From assembly GCF_947568905.1 (NCBI RefSeq), contig NC_079166.1:87420001-87484000 (forward strand): DNA of 64,000 nt, read 5' to 3'. Made by a program: the position numbers and the translations under genes. Of the stretch, positions 24,975 to 35,482 are shown piece after piece. Each line of letters opens with the position of its first letter. Within the stretch, counting starts at the first letter, position 1. This DNA comes from Ostrea edulis. Taxonomy: Eukaryota. The notes beneath the pieces were generated by a model that was given only the letters and a program-made list of their open reading frames with translations, had not been told where the DNA came from and did not search any database.

Positions 24975-25214
24975 AATTTTACGATTTGAATATGAAAAGC
25001 CGAAGGCACTTGTTCACCTCCAAGATGGCGGAAGATTAGCATAACTATAATGCGTGACGTCACACGAAAACTATGTATAATAGCAAGGCATTCTATTATT
25101 AGAAGACAAAATAAATAGTGTTTGACTAGCGACGTGTGCTGTAAACGCCACGCCATCAAGCTGTATGTACACGGACTGTACGAGAACTGAACACGGTCAT
25201 AACATGTCAAACTG

Positions 25215-26214: not shown

Positions 26215-26450
26215 AAAACTATCACAGATAACTATCATAATGCATCTCTTTAAACTCTTATAGATAATGACGTATCTCTTCAAACTATTATTGATAATGA
26301 CGTATCTTTTTAAATTAATTAATCTTTACACTATCATAGATAATGATGTTATCTCGTTAAACTATTATAGATAATGACGTATCTCTTTAAACTATTATGT
26401 ATAGTCATGTGTCTTTTTAAACTATCACAAATAATGACACATTACAGACA
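26215..26450. repeat. ~30 bp minisatellite (aaactatyatagataatgacgtatctcttt)n
   Basis: About 6-7 diverged tandem units. Confidence 0.85.
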
Positions 26451-27051
26451 GTGATGTCATACTTACATATCCAGGACGCTGCTCTCTGTACGCCCCAGAC
26501 TTCTATTGTTTTGTGGATGAGGATGTCCATCTGTAATCGGTACACCAGGGAGGGATAGAGACCATCATCACAATAAACATGTTTTGAACTTCCACTTCCG
26601 ACCCTGCAGTACTTCCTCACTTTGGTCATACACAACGAAGTCAACATGTAACTGTGGTTAGAGAACTTTGAGTTTGTGCTCTCCCAGAGCTGGTACATCG
26701 CATCCTCGGCGTATTTTGTAGATGTAATTTTTAGATATTGGTCGTTATTTTGTATTAAGTTCATTCTCATCAGTTCATCAATATCATGTTTTGTATCCAT
26801 TACAGACACATTTTCGGCATAAAAGAGTTTTTCCCGGATAGTATTAAGTGATTTCAACCATTGATCACTTTTGCTCCAACTAATTTTGTTGTCGTCATAA
26901 CACAAAAGAGAGTACAAAATGGCTTTTTGGTTGTTTGGTAGGATTCCAATCTTCTCTGTATGAAAGGAGAGAAAGATAAATATGAATTACATGATAATGC
27001 ATCACAATACATAAACCGAAGGAACTGTTGGCCAGTCTTTAAATCGAACAT
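26417..27051 (-). pseudogene. Fragment of a probable bivalve nSTAND-NTPase-family protein (post-NTPase C-terminal region), frameshifted near 26900
   Basis: Two overlapping ORFs (65 aa + 166 aa): PFIQRRLESYQTTKKPFCTLFCVM...KVRKYCR...LYPSLVYRLQMDILIHKT, resembling my recollection of the C-terminus of expanded oyster nSTAND proteins; no NTPase motifs visible. Confidence 0.35.
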
Positions 27052-27850: not shown

Positions 27851-29396
27851 TACACAACATCATTTACTAAATCAAAATGTTTATTAATAAGTATTAGTTT
27901 TAATATTTGGCATGTTCGAGTTTCAGAGGAATATGACAAAATTAATAAAAGATCCCAATTTACCATTTATTTTCTGGGCAGAAATAAACAGATTTATGAA
28001 TTTATTTCTTAAGGATGTGGTATCGTGGTAATTTTACCGCGAATGAGTCTCGATACTTTTTCGAGGTGACGTAAGTCAGCCTCGTATGTCAGACCCCAGC
28101 TTCAATGGCGCCCTGTTTTAATCACTACCATTTGCGAAATCACTTTGATTTTTAATATAAGAAATTTGTTGTCACATATGCTAATGCAACGTAAAAGCTG
28201 TCACAATTCACTTTGAGATTGATATAGGATCCATATGTTTACCCTCTACGATAAGCGAGTTAAATAAGAATTTATGAAATCGCAATTTTTATCCCTTCGA
28301 TATGAAACAAAGTCCACACATCAAAAGGAATCGCGAATTAGTGTTTAGGTGTGTAAACAAGATCAAAATTATTTGTCGTTTGCCAACATTTTATTCCACG
28401 ACCTTAGAAAAACAGAATTGGACTGTAGGAAACGATTTGCATTGTTTCTGTATTCATTCGCATTTTCACATATAGACGGGAAAAACATGGTCTATTTTTC
28501 TCTAGGAATTCTGGGTAAACAGCTGTCTCCTCTTATGTCTGAAAATTATGTTAATTAGCCGATTTATCGCCTATCAAAAAATAGTTCACATTGATACTAT
28601 GTTCCATTTTTATTAAACTGTTATATATAAATTCTGTTTTATGTCAGATTGAAGAAGTTTTCCTTGTATGTGATCTGTTGTATTTATCAAGCAGAAATTG
28701 TGTGTAATTAGAATTTTAATATTAAACTCTGTACTATTTCTCTGTATCCATACGTGCCACGCTATCCTGTTTATCAACAAGGAGAAAACGTCTTGCCTGA
28801 GAGAACTGATATATTCTTGCCAACGCATTAACTCAAGGTAATTATCTGAAACCCAATGTGTTAATTTCGTACAATTTTACCAAAATATTTCTTTTGGACG
28901 CATTTTTTGAGATTTTAATACTACATCTGGGTGTAAACATGTAATCTGCGATCGAAAGGGCCGAGCGCCATTTCCCGCGCTCTTTCATGGTCAAGTCAGA
29001 TAACTGTAAACATTGATTAAGAAATATAAATGAACATGTTTTTGTGAATATATTTGTTATTCAAGAAAAGAACTCTATTGGAAATAATATATTGGAAATC
29101 AAGTTTACATTTCTTTGTCACGAAATATGATTTATCTCAAGAGTTGAATGAATTATCTCAAGAGTTGACACTTGTTTTCAAGAGTTGATATTTCAAGAGT
29201 GGAAATTTTCTTGGACTGGTTTAACTTTGACTCAAGAATTGAATGAGTTATTTCAAGAGTTGACAGTTGTTGTCGTCATCAGATATGAAGGGTAGCAAAA
29301 AAAAGAAAAAATCATGATTTTGATAGTCATCAAAGGGAGAGCCCAAAATCTGTCAAAAAAAGAAAAAGTCACAATGTAAGAAAAGATCCCATAATT

Positions 29397-29945
29397 TTGA
29401 AATGCGTGTCTGCCAACTTTCATCAAGGGTCAGAAACTTTCTCAGAATATAGCAGAGGTAGACAATGTGTAGCAAATTCACTTGTGTGCATTTCATTTAA
29501 TGCAGTTAACCAAACATTGTTTGGAGATTGGGATGCGAATGATATTCATTTTGTTCTCGAAAAAGGTGATGTTTTATACAAGCATGCAAGACAGGCCTGT
29601 CCACATGAACATCTTAACCCAGAGGACTTGCCCAAAAATGTTTGCATTCAAAATCAGTTGCTTCATGTGTCTGCTTTACCAGTTTATGCAGGGGAAATAC
29701 AATCCACTTTTAAAGATAACGGCCCTTTCCTCTCTCTTGCTACAGCACTGAATTTATGCTTTGCAGATACCAAAGATGGAGGTATATTTATATGCAATGG
29801 CAGTTCTGCTGCTGTATTCTGCTCAGGCAATCTGTTCCATGTTTTCGATCCACATGCACGTGATGCAAACGAAAATGTTAAGGCAGACGGTTGCTCTGTT
29901 TTGTTGACAGTCAGTGGTTTTTTTTTCAACTTTACAAGCTCTTTT
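29397..29945 (+). pseudogene. Helentron N-terminal papain-like cysteine protease, herpesvirus large-tegument deubiquitinase (peptidase C76)-like
   Basis: SANFHQGSETF..RGRQCVANSL (catalytic Cys), WDANDIHFVLEKGDVLY, FHVFDPHARD (Asp-Pro-His motif); frame shifts at the poly-T run near 29930. Confidence 0.75.
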
Positions 29946-32630
29946 GAGAAAGCTCTTTGGGTGTGAAGAGGGTGCAGCTTTTGAATTGTATGTAGTTTCG
30001 ATGGCAAATGTAGAAATGATGCCTGTTGTCCAAAGACATGTCCAAAGACAAGCTGAAGATAGATGTTGTTTAACTATGGATAGTATACAACCAATTTCCA
30101 GTCTGTGCCATAAATGTCTTTCAGGAATTGGTCAGACTCAGAGCAACAATAATTATTTATCGAACAACTGTGATGAAGTAATAAAGCACTTTCATTCAGC
30201 TGTAAATACAGGCCCATCTTTTGTCTGTAAAAGTTGTTCTCGGGTTTGGTTTAAACACTCAGTTAGAAAAGCGACAGGAATAAGTGAAGATTTCTTGCAT
30301 CAGCATGGCTTTCAAAAGCAAGACATTATTTGTAACACCTGTCACAAATATTTAAAAGCAGGAAAAGTTCCTCCATGTTCATTCATGAATGGTTTAAAAT
30401 TCCCCTCCAAACCTCCTGAGTTGAACATTACACCCCTTGAAGAAAGACTCGTAGCTCCCAGAATCCCGTTTATGCAGTTATTCAAAGCAGAAGGTATCGA
30501 ATTGAATGAGTCTTGAAATTACCAAGATGTTGAATCAGAGGACGAAACTGAAATAAATTCTACATCGACCACAAATTCAGCAGAAGAGTCCATCATAGAA
30601 GCTTGGACAGAAGAAGGTAGTGTGGACGAAAGGCCAACGGGCAATATGGACACTCTAATGCAAAGTATTGACTTCCGAGAATTTAATCAGGTTTTGAGTG
30701 TTGCTCCAGGTGAAAACTTTAACCCTCCGAGTATATTTCAAGATAAAAATGCAGAATTTTTAGCATTTCCTACCATCTATTGTGGAGAAGAAAGACCAGA
30801 CAACACATTAAGAACTGTTCCTTTGCATTACAGTACTATTTGCAAATGGGAGTTGAGAAATGTTGATAGGAGATGTGCACAATGTGTTCCAAATCTATTT
30901 TACAAGTTGAAAAGAATACAAATTAAGCAAATCCAGGACAAAGTCATGCTTGCTATGCGGAAGTGCAAACTACAGGGTAAGAAATACACTGCGGCACAAA
31001 TACTTGACTCGCAAACTGCGGACTCCATTGTTCGATTGAATGAAGAATTTCATGTTCTCCGGAAATTACGAGGATCACCCCCTTACTGGGAAAAAGCTAA
31101 AAGGGACATTTTTGCCATGATCAGGCAACTGGGTTTACCTACTTGGTTCTGTTCATTTTCTGCAGCGGAAACGAAATGGACACCACTACTTAAAACACTT
31201 GGAGAGCTTTATAGAAAATGTAACCTACACAGAAGAGGAAATTATGAACATGAGCTGGGAACACAAAAGTAAACTAATTAGGTCTGACCCAGTAACTTGT
31301 GCAAGATATTTTGACTTCAGGTTTAACAAATTCTTTGCAGAGGTATTGGGCCACAAAATGAACCCTGTAGGTTTTATTGAAGACTTCTTTTACAGGATTG
31401 AGTTCCAGCAGCGAGGCTCTCCTCATGTGCATATGCTTCTTTGGATCAAAGATGCCCCCATCTGTTCAAACTCACTCATATGAAGAAGTGGCTCAATTCA
31501 TTGACAAGTATGCAACTTGTGAAAAGCATGGGGCAGATGATTTCCTGATAAATTACCAAACACATCCTCATGTTAGGACATGTATGAAAAAGAATAAACC
31601 CATATGTAGATTTCATTTTCCCATACCGCCAATGCCTCAGACTGTTGTTCTTGCACCTCTGGATGAAGATGATCAGAATTTCTCAACAGCTGTTATATCT
31701 TACTAGAAAATTGTAGATTACCTTAATTCATCAAAGTTCAGAGAGTCTGAAATTGAAATGACATTTCAAGAATTTTTATCAGAATTGCAGATCAATGTGG
31801 AATGCTACATCACGGCAGTGAGGTCATCTTTGAAACAAGAAAAAAATTTTCCTGAAGCGAAATCCAAATGAAGTGAGAATTAATGCATACAATAGTGTTC
31901 TACTAAAGAGCTGGCAAGCAAATATGGACATTCAGTTTATTTTGGATGCATATGCATGTGCCACTTACATTGTGTCCTACATTTCTAAAGGTCATAGAGG
32001 AATGTCGAACTTGCTGTGGCATGCTTGTAAAGAAGCAAGACAAAATGACTCTGATATTCGCCAACAAGTGAAACGTATAGGAAACAAGTTTCTCTCTCAT
32101 GTTGAGATAGATGCTCAAGAAGCAGTGTACCTGGTACTTCAAATACCACTGAGGCATTCATCAAGGTCCGTGACTTTTGTTAATACTGCTCCCATAGATG
32201 AGCATGCTGTTTTGTTGAAACCTAGGCATGTTTTAGAAGAACTGAAAGAAAGCAGTACAGATATTGAAGCTGGTAATATCATAAAAGTGTATCAACAACG
32301 ACCAAAAGTTCTTGAGGGAATCTGCCTTGCTGATGTTGTGTCCTGGTTTCAAGTTAAGTATCACAAGGAAAACATCAAACAGAACACTTCAGAGGAGTTG
32401 CCTGAAAATGAGCCAGAAGAAGAAATTTCAGAGGATGCAATTCCTGTCATGTCAAATTCCTGTGAATTTGCTCAGAGTTACATGTTTAGGAATGGTACAG
32501 AAATTGTCAAAAGAAAAAAGCCCATGGTTTTAAGATGGGTACATTTTGATATTGAAACAGATAGCGAGAAACATTATCGTGAACTTTTTATGTTGTTCAA
32601 TCCTTGGAGAAATGAAAAAAAAGGATTTGA
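29945..32630 (+). pseudogene. Helentron Zn finger + Rep (HUH endonuclease) region
   Basis: FVCKSCSR..ICNTCHKYL..LEERLVAPRIPFMQL; LRGSPPYWEKAKRDIFAMIRQLGLPTWFCSFSAAE; IEFQQRGSPHVHMLLW (HUH); INAYNSVLLKSWQANMDIQFILDAYACATYIVSYISK (catalytic YxxxY); stops at 30514 and 31704; frameshifts near 31210, 31478 and 31845. Confidence 0.92.
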
Positions 32631-34410
32631 TCAATAAATTCCAATCTTTTGAAGCAAAATACAAGTCATGTGAAAATCAAATTCAGCAGAAACTTTCTGA
32701 ATATCAACAAGGTGGAAAGGCTTTGAATGATATGGAAAACATGCTTCATAATGTAGATGCAGAGGATTTGTGTACAAATTTTGTTGCTCCAGGAAATGAA
32801 CATGAGGAAGAAATACACAGAGAAGAAGGATCAACTCTCTCAGAAAAATGGGGTTGTTTTGATCCTGGTAAACATGCACCAGACTATGACATAGGCCTTG
32901 AACTTGGAATTCAACGAAAACAACTTGATGAGGATATTTCGCAAATGGGTGAAATGAAGGACATTCCATACAGGGAAATGTTGAGAGACCTCAATCATCA
33001 GCAAAGGGAATTCTTTTATCATATACTACACTGGCTGAAAACTAAGAAAGAGCCTTTGTATGCTTTTTTATCTGGTGGAGCAGGAGTTGGAAAAGGTGTA
33101 CTTACAAGAGCCCTTTATCAAGCATTGTTGAAATATTACTCTCACCAAGTTCATGAAAATCCAGACAATTTGCATGTTCTTCTCTGTGCACCAACCGGAA
33201 AGGCAGCCCATAACATAAATGGTTCTACAATCCATGCAGCATTTTGTATTCCAGTTGGTAGAGGATTTGCTTACAAACCACTAGACATGCAACAATTAAA
33301 TACCTTGCAAACACGATACATGAGTTTAAAGGTCATTTTTATAGATGAAATTTCAATGGTAGGTTATGGCGTGTTTAATTTCATGAATCTCAGACTGCAA
33401 GAAATAAAAGGATGCACAATGTCTTTTGGTGGTGTAAATATTGTTGCAGTAGGTGATCTGTTTCAGCTAAAACCTGTCATGGATGGTTGGATTTTTTCTC
33501 CGCCTAATACAGGGTATGGTCCATTAGCAGCAAATCTGTGGAGAGACAATTTCAAGTTGTTTGAATTAACCATAATAATGCGCCAAAGGGATGACAGGAC
33601 ATTTGCTGAACTGCTGAACAGATTGCGAGAAGGAAATCAGACTGAACAAGACATCAGTCTACTATGTCAATGTGTGAAAGAAGAGACTCCAGAAATTACA
33701 AGTATACCCCACTTGTTCACTACCAGAAAGGAAGTACAATCTTACAATAACAAGATATATGAAATGGCAGATGAATCACAGAAAGTAAGCATTAATGCTC
33801 TTGACTGGGTTATTGGAACACCTGATGACGCTGTGAAATTAAAAGTGTTAACAAGAGTCCCTGATGATTGTGCAAAAACAATGGGGCTATCTTCCATGTT
33901 GTTCTTGGTTATTGGAGTTCCAGCTGAAATAACCAATAATGTTAATGTTCGAGATGGAATCACAAATGGTGCGTCATGCACTGTAAAACTCTTTGATTAT
34001 CGTGTGGAAGGATGAACAAGGTGTAGCATCATTTGGGTGCAATTTGATGATGAAAACATTGGAAAGGAGTTGCGCAAAGAATATACAAGGCTATTCAAAA
34101 GTGATATTGAGAAAACTTGGACACCAATTTTAGAAATTACAAGGCAGTTTAATATTCAACTGAATGGAACATATCATGTAAAACGAAGACAGTTTCCCCT
34201 AAGGTTGGGAGCTGCCAAAACAATTCACAAAGCCCAAGGCTCAACTATGAAATCAACAGTTATAAATTTTGGCTCCAGAAAAAATGACCATATGCTTTAT
34301 GTGGGACTAAGTAGGGTTGCCCATATCGAGAACTTGCACATCACCTATTTGAATGAAAAGAAGATATCATTATCACCAGCTGTGTTGGAAGAAATGAGCA
34401 GGTTTCGAAA
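32630..34410 (+). pseudogene. Helentron PIF1-family (SF1B) helicase
   Basis: FLSGGAGVGKG (Walker A), LCAPTGKAA..GSTIH, IDEISMVG, FGGVNIVAVGDLFQLKPV, MRQRDD..LLNRLREG, QFPLRLGAAKTIHKAQG, YVGLSRV; in-frame stop at 34013. Confidence 0.95.
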
Positions 34411-34479
34411 TGAGGGCAAAATGAGAGTCTGCATTGACAATTTGAAAGAGAAAGATCCTTGTACTACAGTTTTGACATC

Positions 34480-35110
34480 ATTTAACATCAGATCCCTTCA
34501 TAAGCACAAGGAAGATTTGGAAAAGGATTTAAACTTTATGTTTTCAGATGTATTAGCAATATCTGAGACAAGACTTGTTCAAACTGATGAAGATGAGACA
34601 TTCTCATTGTCAGGATATAGAATGTATAGGTTTGACTCTCCACAACATTGCACTCAAAGACCATCATATGGTCTTGCTTTTTATGTTAAAGAATCGCTAA
34701 CTGTAAAGAAAATCAACAAAAGGAGAGAACGAAATGTTCAATTTTTTTCCTTGGAAATAGAGATTCGCAGTGGAAAGTCAATTTCATTTATGTTATTGTA
34801 TGTTCCACCAAAGACAGATTTGTTGACAGTAAAGAAGTCTTTTTCAAGATTGTTTGGAAGATCTAAATCCTGTAGTATTGACCGGAGACTTCAATATTGA
34901 CAACCTTTCATCACAAACAGGAAATCTCATGACGTTCATGTCTGAATTTAATCTTAAATACCTGCCCACAGATTCTACCACTGACTATGGATCTGCACTT
35001 GACCACATATACACAAACATTTCTGATGCTCAAATTCAAAGTTGGGGGACACTTGAGTCTTACTTCTCAGATCATAAACCCCTGTATATTGCACTGAAAT
35101 TCATGACAAA
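34480..35110 (+). pseudogene. Helentron C-terminal apurinic/apyrimidinic-like (EEP) endonuclease
   Basis: FNIRSL, LAISETRL, LLYVPP, LTGDFNID, LDHIY, YFSDHKP motifs; frameshift near 34855. Confidence 0.9.
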
Positions 35111-35482
35111 AAAACTTGTTTATGTTATGCAATGTTTAAAAAAAGTACTTTCCCCGATGTGACTTTGGTTGCCAACACTTTATGATATAAATTCTCATTT
35201 GAAAAGACAATATTCATTCAGCTGTATTTAATTCATCTTGAAGAACATCCTACACTAAAATGGTAATAATTCACTTTCTTGCTACTTGTGAATACATCTA
35301 TCTACTTAAATTTAGATAAATATGACTCATTGACTGCAAAATCTAATTTTTTTTTCTTTCAAGAAAATGAACAATGAATTAGAACATTTTGCAACAGTTG
35401 GTTACAAAAATCATAGCAAGATACAAGATGGTGATCTCTTAAATTCACACTCAAACAAAATTTATGCATTTTTCAATTCCAG

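Follow-up and report, generated by a model that had tools for sequence, protein, structure and literature searches.

Deubiquitinase (DUB) domains of the VTD type (Herpes_teg_N, peptidase C76) are already in print as components of Helentron transposons. Erven et al. 2022 (PMC9741609) described VTDs in Helentrons of vertebrates, insects, cnidarians and molluscs, found most non-viral VTDs within Helentron reading frames, 121 of them also with an OTU domain, and proposed that herpesviruses had taken the domain from a Helitron. They solved a crystal structure, assayed activity on Ub-PA, Ub-AMC and di-ubiquitin, and made catalytic mutants: three zebrafish Helentron VTDs cleaved ubiquitin substrates with a preference for K48 and K63 chains, two of the three also cleaved K11 chains and NEDD8, and triad mutants of DrT1-VTD2 were dead. 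Li et al. 2024 (HELIANO, PMC11417382) reported Herpes_teg_N as a recurrent domain of HLE2 elements, located in the RepHel frame of subgroup b. A "tegument" match in a fungal Helitron gene (PMC4289320) is to PHA03247 and is not established there as a VTD. HINEs of 2–4 kb, finally, are abundant among oyster structural variants (bioRxiv 10.64898/2026.02.10.705023). We analysed a 64,000-nt stretch of the Ostrea edulis genome (hereafter the window; NC_079166.1, positions 87,420,001 to 87,484,000), in which an earlier note had singled out a tegument-type deubiquitinase fused to a rolling-circle transposase as an under-described system. Given PMC9741609 and PMC11417382, that claim of novelty falls: the window element adds a further, broken, case to a domain combination already published. 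We hold with good confidence that the domain is the N-terminal VTD of a dead Helentron transposase, forming one chain with Rep, helicase and endonuclease (EN) in intact relatives and likely deubiquitinating to spare the transposase, and that the short copies of the family are ordinary derivatives. The small twist beyond the published work is a ~2-kb mini-copy that spreads the VTD alone, likely as a passenger.

The motifs were where the earlier note had placed them: the frame at 29397 runs through 183 stop-free codons (29397–29945) that hold all of them, with the catalytic Cys and Asp-Pro-His intact (Table 1), and the spaced motif set occurred once in the window and in none of 30 base shuffles. 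Herpes_teg_N was the only Pfam family on the domain (E 3.3e-8, 33.8 bits against a cut-off of 25). The better of two PDB sequence matches was 8ADD, a zebrafish Helentron VTD (E 1.5e-9), the other being a herpesvirus large tegument protein (E 0.018). Cys24, Asp151 and His153 of the domain aligned to C322, D451 and H453 of 8ADD (offset worked out by hand) and Glu76-Asp77 fell at D376/E377, the pair for the R-x-R tail of ubiquitin; residues reported as important in zebrafish VTDs (PMC9741609) were thus present, acidic pair included, and the ubiquitin-binding hairpin loop was similar to that of 8ADD in length and poorly conserved in sequence. For fold prediction we used L010, a complete family copy 92% identical to the window domain, with a 14-row alignment. 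The resulting model (pLDDT 88.6, dropping below 50 at residues 106–108 in the hairpin loop, its least confident part) had the predicted M48-like alpha-beta-alpha fold and matched 8ADD with Foldseek E 5.6e-18 and TM 0.88 (Z 28.4, rmsd 1.9 over 197 aligned residues) and MCMV M48 (2J7Q) with TM 0.83 (Z 23.8, rmsd 2.6, 192 aligned), followed by a Waddlia VTD (Z 17.4) and AvrPphB (Z 12.8). OTU appeared neither in Pfam on the domain at E up to 1 nor among the fold matches listed. Thus, the proposed C76/VTD identity was upheld by Pfam, PDB sequence match and fold, and the profile and structure searches suggested as a check placed the domain with Herpes_teg_N/8ADD and not with OTU. The VTD assignment explains the whole domain; by homology to the zebrafish enzymes, the domain is likely to have had deubiquitinase activity.

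The zebrafish Helentron VTDs (DrT1-VTD1/2 and DrT2-VTD, the 8ADD structure) share with this family the fold (TM 0.88, rmsd 1.9–2.3), the Cys and Asp-x-His, an acidic pair for the ubiquitin tail and the position before Rep, helicase and EN in one frame. They differ in that identity is 24%, the acidic pair is Glu-Asp in the window element and Asp-Glu in the zebrafish VTD, DrT1 has two VTDs and DrT2 a VTD plus an OTU where the window element has one VTD and no OTU, and the window copy is broken, its activity being presumed by homology. HLE2 subgroup b, as described in PMC11417382, resembles the element by domains and termini: Herpes_teg_N and DUF6570 in the RepHel frame, an EN, a HIN-type extra gene, short terminal inverted repeats, a 3′ stem-loop and T-T insertion. 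Herpesvirus tegument DUBs (MCMV M48, 2J7Q; KSHV-type, 6PPB; C76) share the fold (TM 0.83, Z 23.8) and the arrangement of the catalytic residues but are 17% identical, and there the domain belongs to a capsid-bound tegument protein rather than a transposon.

The window copy is a decayed Helentron of ~13.2 kb that encoded VTD, DUF6570, HUH Rep, PIF1 and endonuclease, followed by a spliced OB-fold gene. Rep and PIF1 in one transposase (unbroken in the relative L031), a C-terminal EN and DUF6570 place it among the Helentrons (HLE2). In the partner copies the weaker domain calls gained strength: full DUF6570 scored E 1.7e-17 in L033, the EN of L031 exceeded the Pfam cut-off, and Pfam HIN gave E 1.8e-7 in L031 and E 1e-3 (below cut-off) in L033; the window EN was further identified by tblastn to the L031 EN (E 6e-15) and an SDH motif at 35067. 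All 29 top family copies matched the window solely within 28053–30058 and from 41208 to 41252–41262. The 5′ end had at least 80 exact copies in the genome, against 0 for a reversed control. In 40 of 41 copies TT lay directly 3′ of the right end, none of the 29 copies with both ends had an 8-bp flanking duplication, and the family copies accordingly conform to T-T insertion without target duplication; an empty-site joint for the copy L002 was seen in 4/4 runs, the site itself being repeated. The terminal repeats are a perfect 11-bp pair, the 3′ one 23 bp from the element end. Helitron2/HLE2 termini are described in PMC3627910 as short asymmetric inverted repeats, the 3′ repeat 20–30 bp from the end before a hairpin, with a hairpin also at the 5′ end. 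The termini and the T-T insertion are HLE2/Helitron2 features as in PMC11417382 and PMC3627910. The Lys/Arg-rich N-terminus ahead of the VTD may, judging from its composition, be NLS-like.

Table 1. Features of the decayed Helentron and its VTD (positions within the window).
Feature	Position	Strand	Basis
Whole decayed Helentron (HLE2), ~13.2 kb	28057..41253, ends ~28060 and 41251	+	family copies; flanked by host T residues
5′ 11-bp asymmetric terminal inverted repeat (28062–28072) in predicted hairpin	28062..28084	+	fold z −1.8 for 76-nt stretch, weak alone
Likely start ATG (29285) and Lys/Arg-rich N-terminus	29285..29396	+	ATG in frame with VTD in L033 and 17/32 short copies
VTD / Herpes_teg_N / peptidase C76 core	29397..29917	+	Pfam, PDB alignment, fold match
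FHQG motif	Gln codon 29424–26	+	sequence read
RGRQC motif	catalytic Cys codon 29466–68	+	sequence read
Acidic pair Glu-Asp	29622–27	+	aligned to 8ADD D376/E377
W..NDIHFVLEKGDVLY motif	within 29397–29945	+	sequence read
FDPH motif	Asp 29847–49, His 29853–55	+	sequence read
Poly-T run (T9; T5 in relatives) and VTD last helix and strand, other frame	29918..30009	+	comparison with relatives, model
Cys-rich segment and DUF6570 remnant	30163..30513	+	Pfam; remnant E 1.9e-5
HUH Rep (Helitron_like_N), motif 2 at 31400, tyrosine motif 31966	30517..32619	+	Pfam; frameshifts and stop inside
PIF1-type helicase, Walker A 33074, stop 34013	32624..34300	+	Pfam PIF1 E 4.8e-24
Apurinic-type endonuclease (EN), frameshifted near 34834	34478..35099	+	Pfam Exo_endo_phos E 0.002 (below cut-off)
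Three-exon HIN/OB-fold-type gene, broken; exons ~35483–35920, 37252–37464, 37721–37927	35483..37927	+	GT-AG, phase 0, frames read
3′ inverted repeat 41218–41228, palindrome 41233–41247, element end	41218..41251	+	fold z −2.9
Stretch deleted in ~2.04-kb type A derivative, whole VTD kept	30058..41208	+	family copy comparison
Stretch deleted in type B/C derivatives (~2.2–2.3 kb, Asp-x-His lost)	29702..40626	+	family copy comparison

A poly-T frameshift had been taken as the only separation between the domain and Rep, and comparison with the sister copy L033 showed many more lesions. Upstream of Rep motif 2 the window carries four additional T at 29918, one additional base at 31208 and a stop at 30514, and a 228-bp in-frame deletion at 30478 has removed most of DUF6570. 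Beyond these, length differences lie at 31455, 31840, 32615, 34211 and 34834, and stops at 31704 and 34013. Between the likely ATG and the domain, one extra A at 29297 shifts the start codon out of the domain's frame. The window copy is therefore dead, its lesions amounting to no fewer than seven frameshifts, three stops and the 228-bp deletion; some of the homopolymer slips may in part be assembly errors. The 4-base poly-T difference held against 32/32 short copies, L033 and sequencing run X8, from which one contig also lacked the window lesions at 29918, 30478, 31208, 31455 and 31840 and the 30514 stop. The 8ADD alignment extends to residue 189, and the helix 175–186 and strand 192–202 of the model are encoded past 29918 in another frame, so that the window's own frame holds a truncated VTD; the complete VTD in its own frame is absent from the window copy and present in 28 of the 32 short copies. 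A programmed frameshift between Rep and helicase was rejected: at one A-run the slips of the window (A8) and of L033 (A6) go opposite ways, the break in L034 lies a few codons from there, and L031, L043, L032 and L039 read through, leaving homopolymer damage or assembly error for these slips.

The postulated fusion of the VTD with Rep, by contrast with the window's own broken frame, was borne out in intact relatives, where family copies keep the domain in frame. L033, the sole other copy near-identical over Rep (98%) among 24 matches, has a 1112-codon frame from mid-VTD through Rep, with slips of its own at window-equivalent 29515 and near 32615, and L031, from another family (37% identity in the VTD), has an unbroken 2135-aa VTD-DUF6570-Rep-PIF1-EN frame. 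The Cys and Asp-x-His were kept in 11/11 genome rows of alignment A1 at 24–92% identity, and all four between-family VTD pairs gave dN of 0.27–0.78 with dS from 2.0 to saturated; the VTD is under purifying selection between families. As separate observations, L031:2029–8433 (G000:C3:49.41 Mb), with a HIN-type gene downstream, is a candidate active Helentron, and the 1-bp VTD deletion of L033 at window-equivalent 29515 is shared with one type A short copy (L035), through a recurrent slip or inter-copy exchange.

A genome search with the domain scored 150 of its 203 candidates, and 145 of these were matches. We then surveyed 59 loci covering all 60 DUF6570 matches, 58 of them re-detected, including sister copies and with an upstream reach of 2.9–8.1 kb. 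Among the 58 Helentron loci, 30 had a VTD only, 5 a VTD and an OTU, 8 an OTU only and 15 neither within 7 kb upstream; the 59th locus carried OTU and Rep. OTU had been named as the usual Helentron protease, and this genome does not bear that out, with a VTD on 35/58 and an OTU on 13/58 loci by profiles that were biased, both being partly trained on the surveyed loci and the OTU profile built from five sequences. The 15 loci with neither domain indicated that a DUB is not universally needed, and a Pfam scan covering 28 of the 40 frames upstream in these loci gave no third DUB class. Some Helentrons without VTD or OTU (L099:2548–2937, L101:3041–3463, L104:4932–5429, L111:5002–5406, L112:3969–4400) have a short coiled-coil-like frame 3–4 kb upstream of DUF6570, common to copies and with no Pfam match above cut-off. 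In a large protein library the VTD had 775 matches at E up to 0.001, and 11 of 32 hand-picked long ones contained DUF6570 or Rep domains, those named being from fish, beetle and ribbon worm. The genome is convenient material for studying the role of a transposon's own DUB in rolling-circle transposition, for which PMC9741609 puts forward a hypothesis, protection from degradation in general terms: L031 provides at least one unbroken VTD-Rep-helicase-EN frame, and the families variously have a VTD, an OTU, both domains or neither of them.

The VTD likely removes ubiquitin, which would prevent degradation of the transposase while the element is copied, and, being fused, it would act in cis. HUH Reps become covalently linked to DNA via tyrosine, and adducts of this sort are attacked by ubiquitin-driven protein-DNA crosslink repair, so that a tethered DUB would shield the intermediate. 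We give about even odds that the DUB acts mainly on the transposase itself or on its replication complex. A rather less probable function would be directed at the host instead, at ubiquitin on PCNA or chromatin, cullin NEDD8, germline silencing or innate signalling. Such targets would fit the cleavage of NEDD8-AMC by the zebrafish DrT1 VTDs, the action of viral homologues on signalling and cullins, and the expression of domesticated VTDs in the male germline (PMC9741609), and the basic N-terminus suggests nuclear import; however, no result here points to a host substrate, and the position of the domain in one frame with Rep across families fits action in cis.

At least 80 exact 5′-end copies were found in the genome, of which two long copies extend into Rep. 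Type A derivatives (32 copies, ~2.04 kb) join 30058 to 41208 (for example L002:160–2205 and L010:1321–2192), and an exact search for this junction gave 29 matches, all among the 32 by coordinate comparison. Their VTD core was open in 28/32, and the frame from ATG to stop (261–271 aa) in 17/32, the other 15 having no such frame; the stop is formed by the last three bases of the element, and any poly(A) signal must therefore come from flanking DNA. Types B and C (20 examined) have their breaks close to 29702 or 29597, are missing the catalytic His, and were about as abundant as type A (about 23 plus 7 matches). All are young, ~0.4–0.7% from their majority (type A ~0.5–0.7%). Since derivatives without the His spread comparably, an intact DUB is not needed for spread, and the VTD was likely carried along because it lies within 2 kb next to the 5′ end. 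Oyster Cg_HINEs (PMC7492417) have the same 5′ subterminal repeat with a complementary repeat, the same 3′ subterminal repeat and palindrome and likewise no transposase, but contain central tandem repeats where the window-family derivatives contain the parent's 5′ 1.6–2 kb and therewith the VTD, whole or partial. Likely, then, the short VTD-only copies are ordinary HINE-type non-autonomous derivatives with the VTD as a passenger. Literature searches for such elements listed PMC9741609, the HELIANO paper with its preprint and a plant DUB preprint, and the open-access text covered held no description of a VTD-only non-autonomous element.

It appears improbable that the 2.04-kb element is instead a selected and expressed mini-gene, a stand-alone DUB of 261–271 aa in 32 copies, apparently varying between individuals, that supplies activity in trans or is under domestication as a step towards free host or helper genes. 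A precedent of this kind has been proposed for testis-specific insect VTDs as transposon VTDs turned free genes, and an expressed and selected mini-element would represent domestication in progress. The 28 open cores, the 17 ATG-to-stop frames and the lack of any substitution at the three catalytic codons in any copy would agree with such a gene, but at ~0.5–0.7% divergence intactness is expected anyway, and chance alone would put only ~0.6 of the 37 non-synonymous changes in these 3 of the 173 codons. Distinct changes in the type A core comprised 18 synonymous ones, where neutrality predicts 14.4, and 37 non-synonymous ones, 1 of them nonsense, so that selection on the VTD of the 32 copies was not significant (omega ~0.73, p 0.17); the first 104 codons, a post-hoc slice, leaned to excess synonymous change (omega 0.51, p 0.047). 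Type B leaned likewise (omega 0.44, p 0.14; types B/C 0.44–0.68) with 12 changes only, indicating low power of the test. The stop at the very end of the element, with a poly(A) signal available only from the flanks, also argues against a mini-gene, as do the His-less derivatives, about as numerous and dominant in run X8, where depth at the type B joint was 508 versus 22 for the second half of the VTD. Contigs from three runs of RNA or presumed RNA covered 28900–29367 (X1), the type B joint (X3) and only the repeated 3′ part (X5); the Asp-x-His half lay outside this coverage, which speaks neither way on expression. Among the joints listed, the type A junction was absent from X8, X6 and X9, whereas X7 spanned it with 30 letters and X10 with 15, each short of the 31-letter threshold. 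Type A thus looks rare or absent in X8 and X6, and these data are a weak hint, no more, that it is polymorphic between samples. On balance, this evidence favours the passenger reading.

Processing of its own polyprotein, which the earlier note had offered as one function, found no support, and we consider cleavage by the domain at a ubiquitin-like di-glycine site very unlikely. DrT1-VTD2 does cleave RLRGG-AMC (PMC9741609), and L031, L033 and L034 all contain a (K/L)PRGG motif between the VTD and Rep. However, this motif is inside the conserved DUF6570, its second Gly is replaced in 8 of 26 aligned rows (RGRQ, RGNQ, KGQQ, KGQS, SEGQ), the Gln that follows is nearly fixed in the same rows, and no other di-Gly between VTD and Rep is common to the three copies. 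A variable second Gly next to a nearly fixed Gln suggests that the segment forms a structural turn and is not cut there, and PRGG was rejected as such a site for want of conservation of that Gly.

That the host's Helentrons recently acquired the domain from a large DNA virus infecting it is extremely unlikely. In a viral structure library, 26 of the 30 matches (E up to 0.001) have TM 0.68–0.87, nearly all of them herpesvirus tegument proteins, but identity to these viral proteins is 13–21%, which by sequence makes recent capture improbable, against 24–42% to other Helentron families of the same genome and 53–81% to database relatives. A search of viral contigs for close relatives gave none, 0 of 3 pattern matches being confirmed, and PMC9741609 argues for transfer from transposon to virus. 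The highest TM to the model among the viral matches, above the named herpesvirus proteins, belonged to Q06VS9 (810 aa; TM 0.87, rmsd 2.7). Its accession range we take to be possibly that of an insect ascovirus. If so, it would represent a non-herpes virus with a Helentron-like VTD; the literature matches listed held nothing on VTDs of ascoviruses or malacoherpesviruses. Small uncharacterised giant-virus proteins (Indivirus, Tupanvirus, Catovirus, Yasminevirus) matched the predicted fold with TM 0.54–0.58, and these are possibly distant VTD or YopT-like proteases.

Several other features were observed in the window. A decayed PIF/Harbinger-like element at 22500–25020 contains a minus-strand DDE_Tnp_4 gene (Pfam E 1.2e-32) with a THAP-like first exon, and an opposite-strand gene that, by its motifs, is presumably SWIM/PHD-like. 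A 189-codon minus-strand frame without a Pfam match (26420–26986) adjoins short tandem-like repeats at ~26240–26440. Within the 3′ part of the Helentron, 40528–40978 is a very high-copy repeat (depth ~13,000 versus 11 in run X8), into which the type B/C derivatives join; four type B copies have an extra 1.4-kb insert at 40818. A dispersed repeat of 130–200 bp occurs six times in the window (41690–41890, 4323, 8946, 42904, 47763 and 54748) and also in the flanks of several loci.
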